Part shown: piece by piece, positions 2,538-47,930 of the stretch
Layout: each line of letters starts with the position of its first letter
Position numbering within the stretch: position 1 is the first letter of the stretch
Assembly: GCA_964449245.1 (NCBI GenBank)
Contig: CAYUXY010000003.1
Location: 13,222-77,221 of the forward strand
DNA from: an uncultured Candidatus Saccharibacteria bacterium
GTDB taxonomy: Bacteria > Patescibacteriota > Minisyncoccia > UBA6257 > GWB1-50-10
DNA length: 64,000 nt
Reading direction: 5' to 3'
Made by a program: the position numbers and the translations under genes
Notes under the pieces: generated by a model
What the model was told of the DNA's origin: nothing
The model's database searches: none
What the model saw: only the letters and a program-made list of their open reading frames with translations

Positions 2538-3737
2538 TTATTTTGTAATTTTTACAACCGCTCCGGCTCCTACAGTCTTTCCTCCTTCGCGGATAGCGAA
2601 ACGCTGTTTTTCTTCGAGAGCAACTGGAGAAATCAGTTTGACGTTAATGTTAATAGTGTCTCCAGGCATAACCATTTCAACTCCTTCCGGAAGAATTACT
2701 TCTCCGGTAACATCCGTTGTGCCAATGTAAAATTGCGGTTTATATCCCTTGAAAAACGGCGTATGTCGTCCGCCCTCTTCTTTCGACAAAACAACAACTT
2801 CGGCTTCAAATTCGGTATGAGGAGTTACTGATCCTGGCTTTGCGAGAACTTGTCCGCGTTCTATATCTTCTTTCTTAAGTCCGCGAAGCAAAATTCCAAC
2901 GTTATCGCCAGCCTGTCCGGAATCAAGAGTTTTTTGGAACATTTCCACTCCGGTTACAACTGTTTTTTGCGTCGGACGCAATCCGATAAGCTCGACTTCG
3001 TCGTTAATCTTAACAATTCCGCGCTCTATTCTTCCTGTGCAGACCGTTCCACGGCCTTCAATTGAGAAAATATCCTCAACGGGCATAAGAAATGGCTGGT
3101 CAATCTTTCTTACCGGTTCAGGAATATAATCATCCATAGCCTTCACGAGCTCAAGAATCGGCTTTGCAGCTTCATCATCGCCTGATGCCGCTTCAAGGGC
3201 CTTTAAGGCTGAACCCTTTACGACAGGAGCATTATCTCCGTCAAAGTTATATTTCTTAAGGAGTTCGCGAACTTCTGATTCAACGAGTTCAATGAGCTCC
3301 GGATCATCAACCATATCAACCTTGTTTAAAAACACTATGATCGCCGGTACGCCAACTTGTCGCGCAAGCAAAATATGCTCTCTTGTTTGAGGCATTGGTC
3401 CGTCTGCCGCCGAAACAACAAGCACAGCTCCGTCCATCTGAGCAGCGCCGGTAATCATGTTTTTGATGTAATCGGCGTGACCAGGGGCATCGATGTGGGC
3501 ATAATGACGCTTTTCTGATTCGTATTCGGAGTGATGCAAAGCTATAGTGATTCCGCGAACTCTCTCTTCCGGAGCGTTATCAATAACTGCGACTCCTTCT
3601 TCTTTCTTAGCAAGACCTTTCATATGAAGGACGTGAGTGATGGCCGCGGTAAGCGTAGTCTTTCCGTGGTCTACGTGTCCTATTGTTCCAATATTTACGT
3701 GCGGTTTGGAACGCTCAAACTTTTCTTTTTCTGCCAT
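2538..3737 (-). CDS. tuf: elongation factor Tu
   Basis: 399 aa; [47 protein letters not shown], full-length EF-Tu. Confidence 0.95.
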
Positions 3738-17041: not shown

Positions 17042-18094
17042 TTATATAACACTATCCGCCGCACGGAAAATTCTATCCATTATCGCCTCCGCAATGCCAC
17101 TCCCTGAAATGCCCTCGCAAATTATTTCATTGAGATTGAACGTATCGGCCGCACGGAAAGAGCCGAAGAGATTTTTCGCTATTTCCTTCAGATTGCTTTC
17201 TAATCCGAGTAAAATAACCGCGTCTGCGTCCACAAAAATATTTTTATTCGCGAGCGTCGTAATAACACAAACGCTTTTGTTTTTTATTTTAAACTCTTTT
17301 ATGGCTTTCTTTATTTTTTTTGCTCTAATTGCCTGCGTTTTACCAGTTACGAGAGTCATTCTCGTTTTTGGCGCGTAGTGTTTGTATTTTTGACCCGGAG
17401 ATTTAGGAACTGAATTTTTTCTTTTTTCATTAACAGCATCTTCCGGCATAGTTCCCGTAATTTTTAATATATCGAGTTTTGTAATCGCACCAAAACGCAA
17501 AACTACAGGCTTTGTTCCGGTACAATCGACTACAGTAGATTCCACTCCTATTTTTGATTTGCCTCCATCTATAATGAACGGGATTTTTCCTTCAAAATCA
17601 TTCGCGACGTGTTCTGCCGTTGTTGAGCTCGGTCTCGTAGAAATATTCGCTGACGGAGCCGCTATCGGGCTTCCTGAAGCGCGAATAAGCGCCCGCGCTA
17701 TTTGAGAATTGGGCATACGCACACCCACAGTTTCCCCTCCTGCGGTAGCCGCGTACGAAATTTTTTTACTTTTTTTCAGTACAAGCGTAAGTGGCCCGGG
17801 CCAAAACTTTTTTATAAGTAGCTTCGCGTATTCCGGAACATTTTCCGCAACTTCTTTTAAATCTTCTCTGTCTCCTATATGGACTATGAGCGGATTATCT
17901 GCCGGCCTTCCTTTTGCCTTGAAAATCTTTTTTATCGCGAGAGTATTCGTAGCGTCGGCCCCTAATCCGTAAACCGTCTCTGTCGGAAACGCGACGATCT
18001 CGCCTTTTTTAATCAAATCGGCAGCACGTTTGATTTTGTTCTTTTCCGGCTTTTTTGGATTAACCTTTTCTATTATTGTTTTGAATTTTTGCAT
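17042..18094 (-). CDS. tsaC: L-threonylcarbamoyladenylate synthase (YrdC + Sua5 C-terminal domain)
   Basis: IVAFPTETVYGLGADATN YrdC motif plus C-terminal Sua5 domain; start taken at MQKFK (18094). Confidence 0.85.
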   Translation of the reverse strand: MQKFKTIIEKVNPKKPEKNKIKRAADLIKKGEIVAFPTETVYGLGADATNTLAIKKIFKAKGRPADNPLIVHIGDREDLKEVAENVPEYAKLLIKKFWPGPLTLVLKKSKKISYAATAGGETVGVRMPNSQIARALIRASGSPIAAPSANISTRPSSTTAEHVANDFEGKIPFIIDGGKSKIGVESTVVDCTGTKPVVLRFGAITKLDILKITGTMPEDAVNEKRKNSVPKSPGQKYKHYAPKTRMTLVTGKTQAIRAKKIKKAIKEFKIKNKSVCVITTLANKNIFVDADAVILLGLESNLKEIAKNLFGSFRAADTFNLNEIICEGISGSGIAEAIMDRIFRAADSVI

Positions 18095-18104
18095 TCTTCT
18101 GTGC

Positions 18105-18168
18105 CTATATACGATATACAATATTCTATATTCCTTCTGTATTCCGCTCTAACAACTAAAAACTAATA
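18105..18168. repeat. intergenic repeat modules A (18105-18130) and B (18147-18168)
   Basis: 26-nt ctatatacgatatacaatattctata identical to 47905-47930; 22-nt ctctaacaactaaaaactaata identical to 38054-38075. Confidence 0.7.
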
Positions 18169-18181
18169 TCTAAAAACTGTA

Positions 18182-18313
18182 TCAAGCTATTTCTGCTTGG
18201 TAACACTGTTCGCAGTATACAATTTCCGGTCTCTCTGGAGCGTAGGATGTCTCTCCTCCTACGCCCCTCGATGAACTCGGAGCTACGGAAGGACTGCACA
18301 AGCGTGCTTGCGA
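18182..18313 (-). other. in-frame diverged duplicate of the 3' end of the downstream Cys-rich gene (second CxxC knuckle after TAG stop)
   Basis: Continuing the 18314..20131 frame past its TAG gives ...SYAPERPEIVYCEQCYQAEIA-TGA versus gene end SYSPERKEIIYCEECYQREIA-TAG. Confidence 0.5.
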
Positions 18314-20131
18314 CTAAGCTATCTCTCTCTGGTAACACTCTTCACAGTATATAATTTCTTTTCTCTCTGGACTATAGCTTGTTTGGAATTCATTCGGACA
18401 GGGCCCATCTCCATGAGCGTGCGTTGTCGTATTCTTGTATGTATTTTGTTGTATTTTGTTAATAGTAGTAGTGCTGTCAATAGTTAATTCGTCGTTTGTT
18501 GATGCATTACCTCCGCACTGGCAAGAACGATGCCAGAGCTTCAGAGGATTCCGCTGTTTAAGACGCGACTGATGCCGACAATTTGGACACAAATGCGGGA
18601 TTGGCAACGCCATTGCGCGATGAAATTGTAATTCTTGCGGAGTGATTCTGAAGGCGCCTGTGCATCCGTCGTTACACTTCTTATCGTGTTCACAGCCAAT
18701 TATTTCTTTACAAATATTGTCTGTAACCTCATTTATTTTATTTGGAATTTTGTCATAGCTCATTGTAACTGCATATTCCATTTTATTTTCTTCTCGCCAA
18801 GTATGCCCGCCTTTTTTGGCATCGTCGCGAGACATTGGAAAATATTCGCGCGCAATACTTTCGTTATATGCAAACGGAGATATTTCTGACGGGAAAAATT
18901 CTCCATAAGAGTATTTTCTCCCAAGAGCATCTGCATATGGCTTTGATTGCATATCATTCATAATAATTTTCGACAACTTTTCATATTCTTCTTTCGTATA
19001 TTGCTTGTTTAAAATACAATATTCCTTTTTCTTTAAACTTATGCATCCAAAACAATTTGAACAAGACAAACACAATTCGCAATATGTTATATATTTTGAA
19101 AACCAGCTGGTAATACTGAACTTTTCCATATAATTTTGCTCAATGTTTGTGCTGTCATACACCAACTCGGAATTGTCTGCGAAATTGACATCGTAGCTTT
19201 CCTTAATATTTCCGCCAAACGCTCCGTATTTCAAATTTTCACTTTCACGCATAACAAAACAATGTTTGCAATTTTTTGTTTCAATAAGATCGTTTCCAGT
19301 TGAATCTTTTGATAAAACAATATGAGCAAAGCGTCGCGGAAAGTTGAGAGATAATAATTCGGCTTCTTTTTTTAATTTTTGAATCCCATCCCATGTATCC
19401 AATAAATAGTCCTTCTTTCTTTTTTCATATTCTTCTTTTGAATATTCATTATTCAAAATGACATATTTTTTATTTTGTATGTTAGTAGACCCAATACAAT
19501 TTGAGACATTGCGACAATTGAGTATAAAAAATGAATCCATTGAATTCTCCGTATCGCGCGAGAAAAATACATTTGCACATTTTGAAACCTGCACTCCATC
19601 ATATACGTGCTCGCAATCAACCGCTCCAAAACAATCAACCGAATCCTTGGTATTAAACGTTCTATATGCATGCGCGCAGTTTTCATTATCAGAGGAACCT
19701 ACTAAAAAGTAGCAGTCCTTCAAATTAATCGAATAGTTAACATAATTTGAATTAACATTATTCGTGGCGATAAGAGCGGGCCTTGGTACTTTATTCATTA
19801 GATCCTTATACTGCACAAAAAAGTTCTGATCCGATGAATAATCTGCGGAGTAATCTTGTGGATCCCACTTGTCAGAATACCAACAATCTCTGCAATACAC
19901 CGGAAAAGGAACGTCGTGCGAATACATGGAAATAATATCTGTGTTGCACAAATTGCATTTTCTTTTATAAAAATTCCTTTCGTTTCTAAAAGAAACCCTT
20001 CTCATAAATCTGCACGTCGGGCAAAACGTCGGCGGTGGAACATCAATTTTCTGATAAAAATCAAAGTCCTCCGCGTCTATTTGAAATGAGCTTTTACAGC
20101 TTTGGCAGGTCTTTGTTTCAGACTGATTCAT
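18314..20131 (-). CDS. Cys-rich protein built from repeated zinc-knuckle/zinc-ribbon modules, function unknown
   Basis: 605 aa with >35 Cys in CxxC pairs; internal repeats (NIQNKKYVILNNEYSKEEYEKRKK / KKKEYCILNKQYTKEEYEKLSK); N- and C-terminal CPxCR...RN...Y.R.C..C modules. Confidence 0.55.
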   Translation of the reverse strand: MNQSETKTCQSCKSSFQIDAEDFDFYQKIDVPPPTFCPTCRFMRRVSFRNERNFYKRKCNLCNTDIISMYSHDVPFPVYCRDCWYSDKWDPQDYSADYSSDQNFFVQYKDLMNKVPRPALIATNNVNSNYVNYSINLKDCYFLVGSSDNENCAHAYRTFNTKDSVDCFGAVDCEHVYDGVQVSKCANVFFSRDTENSMDSFFILNCRNVSNCIGSTNIQNKKYVILNNEYSKEEYEKRKKDYLLDTWDGIQKLKKEAELLSLNFPRRFAHIVLSKDSTGNDLIETKNCKHCFVMRESENLKYGAFGGNIKESYDVNFADNSELVYDSTNIEQNYMEKFSITSWFSKYITYCELCLSCSNCFGCISLKKKEYCILNKQYTKEEYEKLSKIIMNDMQSKPYADALGRKYSYGEFFPSEISPFAYNESIAREYFPMSRDDAKKGGHTWREENKMEYAVTMSYDKIPNKINEVTDNICKEIIGCEHDKKCNDGCTGAFRITPQELQFHRAMALPIPHLCPNCRHQSRLKQRNPLKLWHRSCQCGGNASTNDELTIDSTTTINKIQQNTYKNTTTHAHGDGPCPNEFQTSYSPERKEIIYCEECYQREIA

Positions 20132-20137
20132 ATGTGT

Positions 20138-20245
20138 TTAGTATAACCAAAGCGGAGTCCCGCCCCAATGGGTGTTTTGGGGCGTGGGGTCGCTTTCAAT
20201 AGTGAAGGCTTGTTTACATGACTGACATTGTTTGGTTTCGTTCAT
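20138..20245 (-). other. in-frame upstream fragment duplicating the N-terminus of the Cys-rich gene
   Basis: ATG at 20245: MNETKQCQSCKQAFTIESDPTPQNTHWGGTPLWLY-TAA, then ACACAT, then gene start MNQSETKTCQSCKSSFQIDAED; embedded palindrome cgcccca-N10-tggggcg. Confidence 0.45.
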
Positions 20246-20249
20246 AGAC

Positions 20250-20305
20250 ATAATTTCTAATTACTTAATTTCGAATTTCGATTGAATGGATTAATGATTG
20301 AATTT
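20250..20305. repeat. intergenic repeat module C
   Basis: taatttctaattacttaattt + aatttcgattgaatggattaatgattgaattt, matching 47797-47818 and 47854-47885 (2 mismatches). Confidence 0.65.
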
Positions 20306-20348
20306 CTGAATGCGTTTGTATATATCCTTAAATTTTGATTTTTGATAT

Positions 20349-21470
20349 TTACATTTTACATTGCCCTATCGTTCCTCCCCCTATCATCTGCCTACATCCA
20401 TCCCTATCTTCAATAATATCATAAAACACTGCCGATTGGCCTATTGCTATAAATTTCTGCGGTTTTTGAAAAATCAGTCTCCAGCTCTTTTTTTCTCTGA
20501 AAATCTTCGCTTCTACGAGCTTTCCTCTATATCTCGTTCTGCAAAAAATATCCAAACCATTTTCAAAAATATCGTTTTTCATATCGCAGTTTATATTTAC
20601 TTCAGCGAGCGATATTTCTTTTGTATATACCTCCTCGTCGTTCTCGTGGGCTACCGTAATCGTATTGTCTTTTATATTTTTACTTATTACAAAATATGGC
20701 GACATTTCTTTTCCGTTAATTTCACTCTTTATCTGCGCGCCTATATGACGTTGACCTATCGTATAAAAGACTGCGCCGGAATGTTTTCCGATAATTTTTC
20801 CTTTTGTATCCAAAATATCACCTGTTTCGGATTTTATTTGCTCCTTTAAAAAATCCGGAAGGCTTATTTTGCCCAAAAAACATATTCCTTGCGAATCTTT
20901 CTTTTCCGCTACTGGGATTTTCGCTTTGCGAGCTATTTCTCGAACTTCGGATTTTAAATACCCGCCGACCGGAAACAAACTACGGCATAGTTCTTTTTGC
21001 GTAAGCGTCCATAAAAAATAAGACTGGTCTTTATTCTTGTCCCGCGACTCGTATATTCCGTTCTCCCCATTTTTTTCTTTTTTTATAACAGCGTAGTGTC
21101 CTGTTGCGACAAAATCAGCCCCTAACGCGATCGCTTTTTCAAGAAAAAATCCGAATTTTATTTTTTTGTTACACATCACATCCGGATTCGGCGTAATACC
21201 ACTTTTATATCCATTTATCATATATTCGACAACGTTGTCATAATATTCTTCTCTCGCGTCCAACACATAAAAAGGTATTTCTATATGTTCGGCGGTCTTT
21301 CTCGCATCTTCGGCGTCTTTCGCGGAACATCCGTCAAGATTATATCCATTTATAAAAACGCCGGTAACGTCGTACCCTTGTTGCTTTAAAAGAAATGCGG
21401 AAACGGACGAATCCACTCCTCCGGACATACCTACAAAGACCTTTTTATTTTTATTTATCTTCTTATCCAT
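20349..21470 (-). CDS. mnmA: tRNA-specific 2-thiouridylase
   Basis: 373 aa; PP-loop VFVGMSGGVDSSVSA, catalytic Cys region; full-length MnmA. Confidence 0.9.
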   Translation of the reverse strand: MDKKINKNKKVFVGMSGGVDSSVSAFLLKQQGYDVTGVFINGYNLDGCSAKDAEDARKTAEHIEIPFYVLDAREEYYDNVVEYMINGYKSGITPNPDVMCNKKIKFGFFLEKAIALGADFVATGHYAVIKKEKNGENGIYESRDKNKDQSYFLWTLTQKELCRSLFPVGGYLKSEVREIARKAKIPVAEKKDSQGICFLGKISLPDFLKEQIKSETGDILDTKGKIIGKHSGAVFYTIGQRHIGAQIKSEINGKEMSPYFVISKNIKDNTITVAHENDEEVYTKEISLAEVNINCDMKNDIFENGLDIFCRTRYRGKLVEAKIFREKKSWRLIFQKPQKFIAIGQSAVFYDIIEDRDGCRQMIGGGTIGQCKM

Positions 21471-22149: not shown

Positions 22150-24045
22150 TTAAATTTTTGAATCTAAGTTTTTCAAGGCCTCCTCAATTTCGGACTGCAG
22201 ATCTTCAACTTTTTTACCATCTTCCTTTATGCGTGGATTTTTTTCTTTCATCTCCTGCTCCTGAAGATCGGATAATTTAATTACCGGACCCTCTTCTTTT
22301 TTTAACGCCTCTTCCGGTTCAATGGGCTCATTCTTTTTTGCGCCCTGCGGATTCGCGCGTTCAATGCGTTTTTTCTCCGGCTTTTTAGGCTCTTGTGTTT
22401 TTTGGCTATTACCTCGCTCATCTGCTTCAGAAAATTCTATGCCAAGCATAGCAAGATCTTTATGTGTTTCTTTTGGTTTGGGTTTGAAATTCGGAAGTCG
22501 TACGGGACGAATTTCGCCAGCTTTTAATTTCTTCAGACAATCCTGACAATATACGGACCTTCCCTCTTCAGGCTCAAACGGAACAGTCGTCTCATTTCCG
22601 CACGCCGAGCAAGTAACAGTCCGCGATCCTCCGCTTCCTGACATTTCTGCCATACCGCTCCATTTATTAATCTCGTCTTCCACTTGCCACCTTGGACGCG
22701 CGTATTTCTTTCTCGATATTTCAACTATTCTCTCAGAACTTCCCGCGTCCTTAGGGCCATGAAACGGCGGGAGTGTCGAGGCGGAAAATGGCCTCGATGA
22801 AATCCCATCCACCATAAGCTTTATATAAATACTTCTGTTGGGAATGTTGACCATATCTTGTATTACAAAATCCGGACCAAATTCTTTTTCAAGAAATTCC
22901 GCGTCCGACGCTCCAACGCGAAACGCAATCATAGTTCCAACGTTGCCAAAAACGGCATCGCGCACTTTTGTTGATGTATCCGATACGAGCTGGCCTATAT
23001 ACTGATGCGCAAGAATAAGATTCAATCGATATTTTCGCGCTTCAGAAAGAATGTTCGCAAAAGCATCCGTAGCAAAATTTTGAAACTCGTCTATATAAAG
23101 AAAAAAGTCGACGCGCTCATCTTCCCTAATACGCACTCTTTCCATAGCGGCGAGTTGCATCTTTGTTATAAGCATTGAGCCGAGAAGCGCGGAATTGTCC
23201 TCTCCTACCCTTCCTTTTGACAGGTTGACAAGAAATATTTTTGCCGTGTTCATTATCTCAAACACGTCAATAGTACTCTTTGATTGACCTATAATGTTTC
23301 GAATAACTGTCGTCGAAAGAAACTGCCCTACTTTGTTTTGTATAGGCGCTATCGCCTCATTTCTAAATTGATCTCTCCACTCTTCGAATTCGTGCACCCA
23401 AAAAGATTTTATAACGGGGTCTTTTACATTTGCTATAATTTTTTCTCTGTATTCCTTATCAACTAAAAGTCTCGTAACACCGAGCAAAGACGTACCCGGA
23501 GTGTCGAGTAACGCGAGTACGGTGTTATTCATTATGTATTCCATTCTCGCCGACCACACATTAGCCCATATCTTTGTGAAAATTCCCATAAGTCCGGAGG
23601 CTACAAGGTGTTTGTATTTCGGATCCGGAAGTTCAAGAACGTTGAAACCTATGTGATATTCGGTATCGGCTGGGTTAAAATATATAACATCTTCTTCTCT
23701 CTCGACTGGAATTTTTTGGAGTAAAGTTTCGACAAATTCTCCGTGCGGGTCAATTACGCAAACACCCTCCCCATTTAAAATATCCTGCACCATCATATTA
23801 TGGAGCAGGGTTGTTTTTCCTGTGCCGGTTTTTCCGACAACATACATATGTTGTCTGCGATCGGTTCGCTTTATGCCGAAAAGCCGATTTGAGTTTCTAA
23901 AATCGGTTTTAGCGAAATATACTACATCTTTCTCCGGCTCTATACTTATCATATTCTTTGCAAATCGCGATACATTGATTATATCCTTTTTGTCCACAAA
24001 AAACAGCACGCGCCGCTTTCGCGGCGAGTACAAACTTATGCCCAA
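22150..24045 (-). CDS. VirD4/TraG/TraD-like type IV coupling-protein ATPase with C-terminal zinc ribbon and K/E-rich tail
   Basis: 631 aa; Walker A YVVGKTGTGKTTLL and DPHGE; Walker B-like FLYIDEFQNF; C-terminal CSACGN...YCQDC then ~120 aa of K/E/P low complexity; the ORF-track start at 24045 is a TTG codon, so the true start is uncertain. Confidence 0.65.
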   Translation of the reverse strand: MGISLYSPRKRRVLFFVDKKDIINVSRFAKNMISIEPEKDVVYFAKTDFRNSNRLFGIKRTDRRQHMYVVGKTGTGKTTLLHNMMVQDILNGEGVCVIDPHGEFVETLLQKIPVEREEDVIYFNPADTEYHIGFNVLELPDPKYKHLVASGLMGIFTKIWANVWSARMEYIMNNTVLALLDTPGTSLLGVTRLLVDKEYREKIIANVKDPVIKSFWVHEFEEWRDQFRNEAIAPIQNKVGQFLSTTVIRNIIGQSKSTIDVFEIMNTAKIFLVNLSKGRVGEDNSALLGSMLITKMQLAAMERVRIREDERVDFFLYIDEFQNFATDAFANILSEARKYRLNLILAHQYIGQLVSDTSTKVRDAVFGNVGTMIAFRVGASDAEFLEKEFGPDFVIQDMVNIPNRSIYIKLMVDGISSRPFSASTLPPFHGPKDAGSSERIVEISRKKYARPRWQVEDEINKWSGMAEMSGSGGSRTVTCSACGNETTVPFEPEEGRSVYCQDCLKKLKAGEIRPVRLPNFKPKPKETHKDLAMLGIEFSEADERGNSQKTQEPKKPEKKRIERANPQGAKKNEPIEPEEALKKEEGPVIKLSDLQEQEMKEKNPRIKEDGKKVEDLQSEIEEALKNLDSKI

Positions 24046-37224: not shown

Positions 37225-37881
37225 TTAAAACTTCGGTTTTTTGATGACCTGCACAACCTTCCCGTTTATCATAAAATCATCGTTTTCGTGGATATAAATA
37301 GGAGGGAAATTTTTAGTAGATTCCGACATTAATACAACTTGCCTGTTTTCTTTATCCAAAAAGAACTTTTTGATATTAGCCATTCCGTCGATAATAGAAA
37401 GCACAATATCACCGTTTCTCGGATGTTTTTCATTTAAATCTATAATCACATAATCCCCGTCTTCTATTCTCTTGCCATTGATTTTCGCTCGGTTCATACT
37501 CGGCCCATTTACCTGTAGCGCAAAGAAACGATGCTCGCCTTTTATTGATCTATCGAGTAGCGTGCTCGATATCCGCAAGAATCCCTCGACATTCGTTTCT
37601 GCAAAAATTTGCGCCGGACCGGCATTCACGGATCCTAATATAGGCACGGACAAAATTTTCCCCATTCCCATAATTCCCTTCTGCCACTCTTGTTCGTTCT
37701 TTTTTATCATTCCTTTTACCTTGTCAATTCTTAAAAGTCCCTTCTTTTCAAGCTCGCCTAAATGATGCTTTATCTTCTGTGGCGACTCTTCTCCTATAAA
37801 CGAGCCGATTTCTCTAAGAGAAAACTGCCCTAAATTTTTTTCCCGCGCGAGTTTTAATAATTGTTCTTGTATTTTGTGCAT
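37225..37881 (-). CDS. lexA: LexA repressor
   Basis: 218 aa; N-terminal winged HTH, GPSM serine and K in S24 peptidase domain (VNGPSMNRAKI...IKKFF). Confidence 0.85.
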   Translation of the reverse strand: MHKIQEQLLKLAREKNLGQFSLREIGSFIGEESPQKIKHHLGELEKKGLLRIDKVKGMIKKNEQEWQKGIMGMGKILSVPILGSVNAGPAQIFAETNVEGFLRISSTLLDRSIKGEHRFFALQVNGPSMNRAKINGKRIEDGDYVIIDLNEKHPRNGDIVLSIIDGMANIKKFFLDKENRQVVLMSESTKNFPPIYIHENDDFMINGKVVQVIKKPKF

Positions 37882-37944: not shown

Positions 37945-38086
37945 GAAAGTTAAAAGACGAAAGTTGAAAGATAAAAGTATGAATGCGGGTATTTTTCTTT
38001 CTTTTCTTTCAACTTTTTACTTGTCCCTTTTGTCTAATTACTTTTGCTTTCTTCTCTAACAACTAAAAACTAATAACTACAAACTG
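37945..38086. repeat. repeat module D (37945-37985), long AAAG/CTTT hairpin (37961-38025) and repeat module B (38054-38086)
   Basis: aaagttgaaagataaaagta matches 47770-47789 (18/20); the hairpin arms aaagttgaaagataaaag / cttttctttcaacttt likely terminate the MFS gene; ctctaacaactaaaaactaata identical to 18147-18168. Confidence 0.55.
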
Positions 38087-45248: not shown

Positions 45249-45913
45249 ATGTTTTTATAATCGGTAAATATGGTTAATTTTGACGCCTTTTTTATAGCTT
45301 GAGCCGGCATATCGCTTACTGAAATTTCACTTCTTAACTTACCTAAAGCATGCCACTTTGCATCTCCGACTGCAAAAGCAATCGCTTCATCGAGCTTTGA
45401 TATGGCGTGAGCTGTCATAGTGATTCTTGTATAATCTCCCGCAACATATCCTACAGCAAATTCTGGAGAATTAATGTCGGGGCTATTCGGCAATATCCCT
45501 GCAGTATGCCCGTCTTCTCCAATTCCGAAAAGGCCTATTTTATAATCTGCGCCGGATAATTTTTCCATCAATAGATTGTTATATGTTTTTATCGTCGATT
45601 CAAAATCATCGCCATTCAAAACCGGATAAACCCGCAACGCTTCTAAATCAAGCCCTGCATTTTTCAGCTTAAGCCAATTTGAATTTTCGTGCCGAACGGG
45701 GCCGAAACGCTCGTCTGTAAGCGAAATAGACAATCGACCCAATAATTCGTGTGGAATAAGTTTTGACGCCAAAACTGCGATTATGCTTGCTGACCCTCCG
45801 GGCATAAGCCAAAAAACGCTTCTTCCATTTTTAAGAGCGTTTATAATCGGCTCGGCAACATACACGGCAACGAGTTTCGGATCAACAATATTTTGAAAAT
45901 TTACCTTCGGCAT
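45245..45913 (-). CDS. pgl: 6-phosphogluconolactonase
   Basis: 222 aa; GlcN6P-isomerase/6PGL fold (WLMPGGSAS...FGIGEDGHTAGI); 4-nt overlap with gnd. Confidence 0.7.
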   Translation of the reverse strand: MPKVNFQNIVDPKLVAVYVAEPIINALKNGRSVFWLMPGGSASIIAVLASKLIPHELLGRLSISLTDERFGPVRHENSNWLKLKNAGLDLEALRVYPVLNGDDFESTIKTYNNLLMEKLSGADYKIGLFGIGEDGHTAGILPNSPDINSPEFAVGYVAGDYTRITMTAHAISKLDEAIAFAVGDAKWHALGKLRSEISVSDMPAQAIKKASKLTIFTDYKNI

Positions 45914-47741
45914 TTCGAGTATAACTCTTTAGCCTCTTCAATCATATTGCCCAGTCCGATATTTATTCCGTCGGCCCAAAAACTCGGGTGAGTCGGGTCG
46001 AGACTAAAAGGCTTTAAAAGTTGAGTCACATTTTTAGTCATTCCGGACTTCAACATATCAAGATACAGCGGTTCAAATTTATCTCCAAAATCATCCTGTC
46101 TCGCATAGATACTTTGAGTTAAAAGCTCTCCGAAAGCATAGCCGTAATTATAAAAAGGTCTATGAAAGTGCCCGATATAAGCCCAGAGATGCTCAATGTT
46201 TTTATACGAAAACACTTCTCCGTCTTCGCCATAAAGCTCTTTTATTGTTTCAATCCATATTTTATCCAGCTCCTTAACTGAAAGTTTTTTAGGCGAGCTC
46301 CAATGTTTATAATTTTCATCCATACCGTGAATTCTGCGTTCAAAATTGGAAAATCCGATTTGCCTAACTGTTGTATTTATCGTGTCATCTATTTTTCCCA
46401 TAAGGAGCGCGAGTAATGATTTTATATCCCCTTTTTCTATAAGTTTCTTTTTCAAAAAATTGAAAGTTGTCACTTCGCCGAAAACCGAAGCTGTTTCGCA
46501 ATACGCGATTGGCGCGTGAAACATAAGCGGACCCTGTGCTACGCCAGAAATAATTCCGTGAACGCCGTGTCCAAACTCGTGTGCCAGTGTCATGACATCG
46601 CGATTTGAACCCATATAATTAATTAGCGTAAAAGATGCCGGAGTATATTTCGGTAAAACAACCGAGTAATTAAACCCTCCGCTTATCTTCCCTTTTACCG
46701 CCGGAGCGTCGATTTTCTTTGTTTCTATAAACCTTTTTACCATCCCCGCAAGAGTCGGGCTAAAGCTTTCGTATGCCTCGGTAACGATTTTCATCGCGTC
46801 GTTAAATGGAATGCGAGTCGTGTCCGAGAAAGGCAGTGGCGCGTTTCTATCACTCCATTTTAATTTTTTAAGTCCAAGTACCGATGCCTTTAATTTGTAA
46901 TAATCCTTGACTAATGGCGTGGCATTTTTCTTAATTGCCAAATGGAGCGCGTTTACGACTTCGTCCGATACTTGATTTGATTTATTACGCGGAACCATCG
47001 GATTTTTATAATTCCGTTCTTTCAATTCAACAGCGTTCTCTCCTGTAATCATATACAGAGTTTGAGCGGAATATTTTGCAAACGTCCCGCCTAACCCGCT
47101 GTTAATAATAGACATAACTTCGCTTCTTTCGTCTGAATTTTTCGATTCCGAAAGTAAATGAGTCATTTCGGTAAGCGTTTTTTTCTTGCCTTTAAATTCA
47201 AACTCGAGATCTGCCTCAACCTCGTCAAAAAACTCGCTCCATGCGCCCGCGCTAAATGGGGCTCTTTTTATGATGGCCGACTCGACTTCTTCGCTTAATA
47301 TATGAGACTTAAAAATCCGTATGTGTTCTATCCACGGACGATGTTTATTAACTAATTTGTCTTTTTTATAAAACGCCGATAGCTCTTTCTCTGTAAACTT
47401 AACAATCTCGATTTCTAAGAATGTCAGATATGCTCCGTGCAAATGGCTCAAAACCCTATTTACTTCCGCTACTTTTGAATTTACATCCGAATTCCTCACG
47501 TTCTCGCTTTGCTTTAGATACAGATAAAGCGTTATTTTGTTTTCAAGCATAGCAATTTCAGAATAATCATTTATCGCTATTCTTAGCGTTCTTTTCAGAT
47601 TTCCTTTATGCGTGGAATAAAACTTTTTCGCCTTCGCGGTTAATTTTTTAATGTCGGCATCAATCTGCGGGTCTTTAATGCCGGAGTATAAACCGCTTAA
47701 ATCCCATCTGTATTTTTCCGCACCTACTTTTTTGTTTGACA
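45901..47741 (-). CDS. pepF: oligoendopeptidase F (M3B)
   Basis: HEFGHGVH zinc motif; ~610 aa; start taken at MSNKKVG (47741) rather than the track start 47769. Confidence 0.85.
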
Positions 47742-47760
47742 TGATTGAATAATATAAGTT

Positions 47761-47930
47761 GAAAGGCAAAAGTTACAAGATAAAAGTAAAAATACAAATT
47801 TCTAATTATTTAATTTTGCCTGCCCGATTGAATGAATCGGTCGTTCGGGCGGGAATTTCGATTGAATGTGTTAATGATTGAATTTATTAATAAATTTATC
47901 TGCGCTATATACGATATACAATATTCTATA
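47761..47930. repeat. composite of repeat modules D (47761-47808), C (47797-47885, with a ~35-nt palindromic insert) and A (47905-47930)
   Basis: aaagttacaagataaaagta; aaatttctaattatttaatttt ... aatttcgattgaatgtgttaatgattgaattt; ctatatacgatatacaatattctata identical to 18105-18130. Confidence 0.7.

Follow-up and report, generated by a model that had tools for sequence, protein, structure and literature searches.

The 64-kb stretch of Candidatus Saccharibacteria DNA analysed here (called the window; 39% GC, with genes nearly all on the minus strand) carries one intact gene of a cysteine-rich protein family, flanked by two short fragments that correspond to the beginning and to the end of such a gene. 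All features of this locus lie on the minus strand and are described in the order of transcription. The first is the gene for the tRNA 2-thiouridine synthase MnmA (20349-21470), the upstream neighbour. Then comes an AT-rich module resembling a promoter and 5' untranslated region (20252-20310), a putative promoter that reads AAATTCAATCATTAATCCATTCAATCGAAATTC and then GAAATTAAGTAATTAGAAATT directly before an ATG. This module adjoins the start of a mini open reading frame (mini-ORF; 20138-20251), called here the N-stub, which encodes 37 residues from the ATG at 20251 or 35 residues from the ATG at 20245 and stops at a TAA (20138-20140). Its translation is MSMNETKQCQSCKQAFTIESD followed by PTPQNTHWGGTPLWLY and the stop, that is, M(SM)NETKQCQSCKQAFTIESD and 16 unrelated residues. 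The homologous codons, up to ..FTIESD (20189-20245), correspond to family residues 1-21, and the remainder of the mini-ORF runs through a GC-rich stem-loop (20141-20200; AAAGCGACCCCACGCCCCAA / TTGGGGCGGGACTCCGCTTT; inverted repeat I6) that starts in the final stub codons. The TAA and six further nucleotides, ACACAT (20132-20140), lead to the ATG of the main gene. This resident gene (18314-20131) encodes 605 residues, is intact, with a full-length match to the family profile, and its end reads QTSYSPERKEIIYCEECYQREIA-TAG. Directly after the TAG, 60 nucleotides (nt) of scrambled, GC-rich junction (about 59%; 18254-18313), which contain an inverted copy of the first codons of the following stub, precede the C-stub (18182-18253, ETSYAPERPEIVYCEQCYQAEIA-TGA), in which the 23 terminal codons of a family gene are followed by a TGA of their own. 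An AT-rich intergenic module (18147-18179) lies between the C-stub and the start, at 18121, of the downstream neighbour, a Sua5/TsaC-like gene (17042-18121).

More than 7,465 relatives of the resident protein were found, about 565-615 residues long (typically ~590) and almost all of them unnamed 'hypothetical proteins' from metagenome-assembled genomes of Parcubacteria/Paceibacterota (Patescibacteria); the nearest is 51% identical. There is no database name for this family, and a family profile of 591 positions was built from 120 relatives. The resident protein matched it end to end (867 bits, positions 2-590 of 591) and has kept all the invariant cysteines (C9, C12, C37, C40, C480, C515, C518, C537, C578, C596 and C599). 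It contains 34 Cys and 13 His; CxxC motifs at 9, 37, 59 and 80 form an N-terminal zinc module, CxxC motifs at 515 and 596 belong to a C-terminal one, and the middle is made of two internal repeats of ~148 residues (D1). The first-pass annotation, made from the letters of this DNA only, had rightly described a protein built of CxxC modules. It had also called the protein unusual and uncharacterised. The second term is accurate, as no match was found in Pfam, NCBIfam, the PDB sequences or PADLOC (no Pfam or NCBIfam family at E<=1), and a literature search found no description of the family or of the stub architecture; the first is not, in view of the number of relatives in this lineage. A common motif series, F.I...FY...P.P..CP.CR...RN..L..R.C...YC..CY, is present in the N-terminal ~85 and in the C-terminal ~90 residues of the family, and the two regions appear to be homologous zinc modules. 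Family members have treble-clef-like zinc modules at both ends and a repeat or solenoid-like middle. An AlphaFold2 model of the resident protein (pLDDT 81.9, pTM 0.82) had no significant structural neighbour in the PDB, only weak left-handed beta-helix look-alikes.

A search with the family profile covered all 3,625 six-frame pieces of the window. It matched the C-stub at positions 569-591 of 591 (E=2.5e-11) and the N-stub at positions 3-20 (E=2.7e-4); apart from the gene and the two stubs, no piece of the 64 kb scored better than E=1.4, and the interiors of the stub copies are absent. Chance is therefore very far from explaining the similarity of the stubs, which involves nothing but the two extremities of the family gene. 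The similarity holds at the nucleotide level, with 52/69 nt identical between the C-stub and the resident end (67 nt at 78% according to a repeat finder, D2) and 42 identical positions among the 71 aligned columns of the N-stub and the resident start. The homology reported by the first-pass annotation was thus confirmed, but the stubs are not, as it had proposed, duplicates of the gene's own termini. The C-stub was up to 86% identical to C-termini in other genomes (L018, 57 nt) compared with 78% to the resident end, and the N-stub, which had no blastn match to the resident start, was 80% identical over 50 nt to sequences of other genomes. The C-stub is a near-perfect family consensus (..ETSYAPERPEIVYCEQCYQAEV.), while the resident end departs from it (S, K, II, EE, R); in fact both stubs are consensus-like and both resident ends atypical. 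Decaying copies of the resident ends would be less consensus-like than the ends themselves, and the reverse was observed. Because they match the consensus and the genes of other genomes at least as well as they match the resident ends, the stubs are, as far as their sequences tell, truncated ends of other family copies and not copies of the resident termini.

This result bears on the origin that the first-pass annotation had ranked first, slippage among the zinc-knuckle repeats of the gene itself, and on another of its proposals, a stop-codon readthrough that would add a knuckle. In their favour, the protein contains internal repeats (D1), the two flanks share the frame of the gene, as had been noticed (coordinate differences of 114/120 and 132 nt), and one relative, P0062, is called as a 633-residue in-frame fusion of a stub and a gene. 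However, the stubs are closer to the genes of other genomes than to the resident ends, and the reading frame varies among related units: the stub-to-gene frame offsets in eight of them (see below) were 0, 1, 0, 1, 2, 2, 1 and 1, so that the double in-frame arrangement of the window is best read as chance. Furthermore, TAG and TAA are ordinary stop codons in this genome (32 TAA, 11 TGA and 7 TAG in 50 window genes), a doubled C-terminal motif was found in none of the 120 relatives, and the 20 codons that separate the TAG from the C-stub (18254-18313) are non-family sequence with an inverted repeat, devoid of forward similarity to the family. Slippage and readthrough are both considered highly improbable.

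Tandem arrays of family genes provide a source of neighbouring gene ends. Among 162 related loci, 75 hold at least two family copies, all of them on one strand and head-to-tail; the 106 adjacent pairs have a median spacing of 64 nt (37 of them at most 30 nt), and the arrays reach six copies in a row. Toxin-antitoxin genes (HicB, PIN, RelE-like) are interspersed in the arrays of L087, L092 and L164. The window lacks this usual tandem context: the profile search of the 64 kb found one full copy and the two stubs only. Elsewhere, incomplete copies are often found next to complete family genes: C-terminal fragments at L065, L066 and L080, and N-stubs with hairpins at L014, L021 and L146. The window stubs are likewise terminal fragments that lack any interior and lie beside an intact paralogue. 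They are clean, with no stop codon or frameshift over the homologous codons, whereas the C junction is scrambled; this cleanness may reflect copying from paralogues. An exact look-up showed that the mini-ORF and C-stub peptides are not called as proteins in public collections. An assembly artefact was rejected, since the same architecture is present in independent JGI, ENA and NCBI assemblies. With moderate confidence, we interpret the locus as recombination or deletion relics of a dynamic gene array around an intact gene, the N-stub having become, passively at the least, a leader or upstream open reading frame (uORF) of the resident gene.

Short fusions of the two family ends were also observed. 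L092 has two mini-genes (35-186 and 715-872) in which family residues 1-34 are followed directly, but in another frame, by residues 572-591, with an identical junction in both; their C-terminal parts differ mostly synonymously in the C-terminal frame, and each mini-gene is followed by a RelE/ParE-like toxin-antitoxin pair.

The N-stub is not peculiar to the window. A scan of 264 family genes with upstream DNA revealed the window-type (type 1) unit in six further loci (L011, L084, L087, L103, L108 and L131). A minority N-terminus, F-x-IDA-x-D in place of the consensus F-x-IEPED, is encoded by 5/7 of the genes that follow such a unit and by about 9/257 genes (Fisher p=8e-8). Four more of these IDA-type proteins were looked up as a prediction, and two of them (L164 and L168) have an N-stub unit. 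Type-1 units are thus present in the window and in eight other loci, and 7/9 unit genes are of the IDA type once L164 and L168, chosen for this property, are counted. All type-1 units have the same order: a start codon and family residues 1-21 ending in IE(P/S/A)(E/D), a GC-rich stem-loop, a spacer and the ATG of a full gene. The outer 5' arm of the stem-loop is made of the final stub codons and the 3' arm ends with ..GGACTTCGCT. The spacer from the stem-loop to the ATG is 12-19 nt long (17-19 nt in six of the nine units) and its sequence is not conserved. Eight of the nine type-1 stubs are intact ORFs; the L168 stub contains a stop codon, which indicates that decay also occurs. Other N-stubs are broken at other points, where GC-rich hairpins are present too: after CQN in L146, after residue 37 in L014, and after CQNC, with two hairpins, in the type-2 units of L021 and of the region upstream of the L164 unit. 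Neither this recurrence nor the GC-rich stem-loops at both junctions had been noticed in the first-pass annotation.

Only ~3% of the family genes carry any such unit. The unit-bearing downstream genes do not form a clade, and the unit is missing from their nearest neighbours (55-60% identity). The idea that the stub-associated genes share an N-terminal module transferred recently was rejected, as nucleotide identity was not above background and the genes are not a clade. The spacer is not significantly similar to family codons 25-31, of which it could have been a relic (summed p=0.15), and the DNA that follows type-1 stubs is not significantly similar to the C-terminal coding end. Scans of viral contigs with a conserved 15-mer and a conserved 18-mer gave chance matches only and no family genes.

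The window stem-loop has a predicted RNA folding energy of -24.4 kcal/mol (z -4.4), with stub codons 19-21 in its 5' arm, and z-scores in five units ranged from -3.5 to -6.4. An alignment of seven loci supports a conserved structure of 19 pairs: 83% of the cells are paired, six pairs have changed on both sides, and the sense strand is the only one on which G-U pairs are tolerated. A covariance model (R1) built from five units matched the window stem-loop with 58.6 bits and recovered the L164 and L168 units, on which it had not been trained, with 50.5 and 40.7 bits. It found no type-1 stem-loop outside N-stubs in the window and 1.2 Mb of loci. An Rfam scan of 17900-20600 returned nothing relevant.

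In trp/his-type attenuators, in ermC/cat-type translational attenuation and in coupled uORFs, a short ORF runs into the 5' arm of a stem-loop placed before the regulated gene. The type-1 units share this arrangement: the stub ORF enters the 5' arm of a stable stem-loop and its stop codon lies beside or overlaps the main start. Whatever their origin, the stub and the stem-loop could therefore form a functional cis-regulatory leader, in which the progress of ribosomes on the mini-ORF, with its two Cys codons, would control the hairpin and then transcriptional read-through into, or translational coupling to, the main gene. The double-sided changes, the sense-strand G-U pairs and the z-scores are in favour of such a role, as are the intact mini-ORFs in front of an unconserved spacer, the nearly constant length of this spacer, and the position of the stub ORF end, at most ~12 nt from the main start in 8/10 related units, with three ATGA/GTGA overlaps. 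A terminator scan flagged the window hairpin with its tail CTTTGGTTAT. However, the T-rich tail is weak, and U-tracts after the unit hairpins are weak and inconsistent; in eight folded leaders there was no consistent attenuator-type alternative structure (anti-terminator or anti-sequestor pairing) and the main start was not sequestered. The L168 stub has already been broken, copying from paralogues can explain the conservation of the others, the unit is restricted to a small fraction of the family, and Rfam has no match. Unlike in known leader regulators, the leader ORF is here a fragment of the regulated gene's own family. A dedicated regulatory function is in our opinion unlikely, though far from negligible.

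On the other side of the gene, a C-terminal fragment follows a family gene in only 1 of 238 genes with downstream DNA, and this one is the window's own. The junction contains an inverted copy, GGGGCGTAGGA (18257-18267), of the first C-stub codons, TCCTACGCTCC (18237-18247), and its reverse complement matches family coding DNA for 'TSYAP' (score 14, z 5.2). We read these features as a fold-back scar, presumably left when a rearrangement deleted a downstream copy up to about its codon 565. The C-stub would thus be the last 23 codons of a mostly deleted copy, joined to the resident stop codon by the fold-back junction; the deletion would end at this stop codon because selection keeps the resident gene intact. 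The C-stub is most likely inert, with no evident role. A diversity-generating retroelement was rejected, as the C-stub differs from the gene end at 17 positions at which every base is affected, in either direction, and not adenines alone; no relevant match was present in or next to the region, and no window-wide search for a reverse transcriptase was made.

Alternatively, both stubs could be the two ends of one older family gene, into which a whole family gene, bordered by short GC-rich stretches, inserted, replacing the interior. The N-stub directly follows the promoter-like module and the C-stub directly precedes the next intergenic module, as they would in a single old gene; the junctions abut the resident ORF (6 nt before its ATG, 0 nt after its TAG), and it is the stubs that are consensus-like and the resident ends that are atypical. 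Nevertheless, no C-stub accompanies the other N-stubs for which downstream DNA is available, the old interior has left no trace in the profile search, and the GC content of the resident gene (36.4%) is within the genome range (39.3+-3.3) and gives no sign of recent import; horizontal acquisition in the recent past was rejected on this ground. Tandem arrays are, moreover, a simpler source of neighbouring ends. Such a nested insertion is considered improbable. It resembles the proposal of the first-pass annotation that a homologue had inserted into an older paralogue, which of its proposals came closest: the stubs are remnants of paralogues, but a single event need not account for both, since the C-stub is found in one gene only.

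Information on how N-stubs may be made comes from a locus recovered from five samples with only 4-5 single-nucleotide polymorphisms (L164/L293-L296). In L293, an IDA-type gene is followed by two tandem 98-nt type-2 units (Tandem Repeats Finder: period 98 nt, 95% identity) and then by another family gene. Nucleotides 1286-1444, a type-2 unit with the type-1 stub, are 89% identical to nucleotides 3372-3530, a type-2 unit with codons 1-21 of the next gene. The identity breaks off precisely at codon 21: from there on, one copy has the hairpin and the other the rest of the gene. The site between codons 21 and 22 is thus empty at 3530 and filled at 1444. This comparison shows that the 5' ends of array members have been copied onto each other, by segmental duplication or gene conversion, with the hairpin as the boundary of the tract. 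Such copying offers an explanation for stubs that are consensus-like in front of an unconserved spacer, and the window stub may have been maintained in the same way.

The two tandem type-2 units of L293 (3276-3475; also in L164 and L294-L296) are each composed of a gene start of 11 codons (M..E..CQ.C), a pair of hairpins and AAAAACTT. Both are open 33-residue ORFs, each with an ATGA overlap to the next, and a third copy lies 5' of the type-1 stub. The type-2 linker peptide PVKSRA(F/I)AS is also present in P0062. This protein and P0122, a member of the same 90% cluster, are identical over their first ~530 residues, including the fused stub and linker, with differences all along the final ~100. 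Either recombination took place at the conserved LPLPRLCPNCRHYQRLKQRNPLKLWHR block or the assembly has merged tandem paralogues into a chimera; the pair points to copying or recombination at the 3' end too.

The filled and empty sites of L293 would also be produced by mobile palindromes. The stem-loops could be insertions related to MITEs (miniature transposable elements with inverted repeats) or repetitive extragenic palindromic (REP) elements, with a preference for a quasi-palindromic site, GAACCGGA followed by GACTTCGC; the stubs would be the inactivated copies and their IDA-type neighbours the survivors. A second filled/empty pair exists within the window: the module at 20252-20310 has another AT-rich copy of ~55 nt at 47797-47885 (minus strand), 5' of a PepF-like oligopeptidase gene (45901-47769), and there a GC-rich palindrome of 35 nt, CCGCCCGAACGACCGATTCATTCAATCGGGCAGGC (47818-47852), divides the module in two. 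The first 12-14 nt of this palindrome recur in hairpins of L108 (1700) and L146 (1258), which makes a second hairpin family, CCCGCCCGAACG...CGGGCGGG, in three genomes. In two genes that are otherwise intact (L124, 2387-2540; L147, 1482-1630), an in-frame GC-rich insertion of ~60 nt (SFARGSGPLRQSSSEASEAM) separates KVP from PPPTW of the N-terminal zinc module, and it resembles palindromic elements that are translated within proteins. The tandem amplification of type-2 units is also consistent with mobility, and the association with IDA-type genes would fit target-site immunity.

Insertion of prokaryotic MITEs into genes and pseudogenes is documented (PMC10969869), and the hairpins have several properties in common with MITE/REP-like elements, including Rickettsia palindromic elements: they are short GC-rich palindromes in an AT-rich genome, with filled and empty sites, intragenic in-frame examples and clustering in pseudogene-like DNA. 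On the other hand, the inserts in the units are only 19-47 nt long, and the hairpins as a whole (19-60 nt) are short compared with the ~150 bp of the Rickettsia elements (PMC10969869). Dispersed copies of the type-1 hairpin were not found in the window and 1.2 Mb of loci; a target-site duplication could not be shown, and no terminal inverted repeats define the element. Seven GC-rich hairpins in the window have an uninterrupted stem of 8 bp or more; all of them lie outside genes, one reaching the end of a gene, and they do not resemble the stub hairpin. Finally, insertion leaves unexplained why a complete new gene always starts ~27 nt after it. We regard a mobile origin of the stem-loops as possible, yet doubtful. 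In summary, the locus resembles both leader regulators and MITE-type insertions but fails a defining test of each, as neither a consistent alternative structure nor dispersed copies were found in the DNA searched.

In the interpretation that we favour, relics of a gene array around an intact gene, the flanking stubs would have been left by illegitimate recombination or deletion within a family array, in a birth-and-death turnover. The upstream stub would have kept the promoter-like module, the start codon and codons 1-21, up to the point where the GC-rich stem-loop interrupts it. The resident gene would be transcribed from the promoter of the stub, through the stem-loop: only 6 nt separate the mini-ORF stop from the main ATG, which leaves no room for a further promoter, so that transcription probably starts at that of the stub; the presence of the AT-rich module 5' of another gene supports this proposal. 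The main gene would be translated after the mini-ORF or coupled to it, and termination-reinitiation may deliver ribosomes. Shine-Dalgarno-like motifs are rare in this genome (4/50 long ORFs of the window), so that their absence before the main ATG is unremarkable and initiation there needs no special signal. These transcription and translation steps are predictions from the DNA sequence, and this weighs against the proposal as a whole.

The locus has much in common with the relics of other tandem gene families: paralogues arranged head-to-tail, fragments that match gene ends only, a disabling stop codon (L168), mosaic alleles (P0062/P0122) and segmental copying between array members. Several observations nevertheless argue against simple relics. 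First, nine independent loci in distant genomes have the same break between codons 21 and 22, related stems as a structured insert and a spacer of fixed length (17-19 nt), which random deletions would not produce. Second, the N-stub is tied to a particular N-terminal variant of the downstream gene, although the unit genes are not a clade, and pure decay does not predict such a link. Third, all but one of the nine stubs are intact ORFs. Fourth, no second family copy is present in the 64-kb window as a donor for gene conversion. Lastly, no orthologous mnmA-sua5 locus was found from a close relative, the nearest protein being 51% identical. Type-1 and type-2 units might be a self-propagating 5' module of a new kind, which would move among paralogues and genomes by recombination via the first ~20 codons of the family and cap genes with a new promoter-proximal mini-ORF and a hairpin while regenerating an intact start, or they might be a new class of leader that couples the expression of a Cys-rich protein to the translation of a Cys-containing mini-ORF. 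Either is a speculative proposal, to which we assign a low probability.

The terminal zinc modules resemble known treble-clef families. Like PF13451 (zf_Tbcl), PF23477 (zf_Tbcl_2) and TIGR04272 (CxxC-x17-CxxC), they have paired CxxC knuckles and a ..PxxxRPxxVYCxxCY motif, which is shared by the C-stub and by a VirD4-like neighbour. Relatives of the resident protein match the treble-clef models weakly (PF13451 in 17/40 and PF23477 in 9/40, with a best E of about 1e-4). In contrast, the resident protein is below all thresholds, its 590-residue architecture belongs to no described family, and the C-stub itself scored 15.6 bits with PF23477 (cutoff 27) and 13.9 bits with TIGR04272 (cutoff 36). The VirD4-like neighbour (22150-24045, minus strand) is a VirD4/TraD-like coupling ATPase (TrwB_AAD_bind, E=4e-17) in which residues ~476-507 form a CxxC-x17-CxxC treble-clef domain (PF23477/TIGR04272), followed by an A-rich and K/E-rich tail; the motif is of the same type as that at the C-terminus of the resident family. 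At L039 (1-300), a different upstream gene ends in the family N-terminal zinc module (..FYKKHSIPLP..CAFCQKNIVSYYP..KIVCEECYLREVV and stop), which indicates that other protein architectures contain this module too.

Repeat modules beyond the 3' flank had been mentioned in the first-pass annotation and they exist: 18147-18166 is an exact 20-nt repeat, TTAGTTTTTAGTTGTTAGAG, of 38054-38073 (minus strand), and the similarity extends over 33 nt at 94% (38054-38086), hence over the AT-rich intergenic module. One copy is just 5' of the Sua5/TsaC-like gene and the other just 5' of a LexA-like repressor gene (37225-37881). The repeat may be a shared operator or promoter element.

The stubs have a practical consequence for annotation, as they can be mis-called as small zinc-ribbon proteins or can wrongly extend gene models, as in P0062; knowing the pattern prevents over-reading of such loci as readthrough or recoding. 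The family, with its thousands of members, is among the most abundant uncharacterised protein families of Patescibacteria, and since its 5' and 3' ends appear to be recombination hot spots, it may be turning over rapidly. The ordinary part of this locus is the presence of pseudogene stubs in a tandem family; the recurrent, structurally conserved unit of stub, stem-loop and restart is the unexpected one. Should this unit have a function, it would represent a new type of cis-regulatory leader, with a leader ORF derived from the regulated gene's own start, in organisms whose gene regulation is almost unknown.

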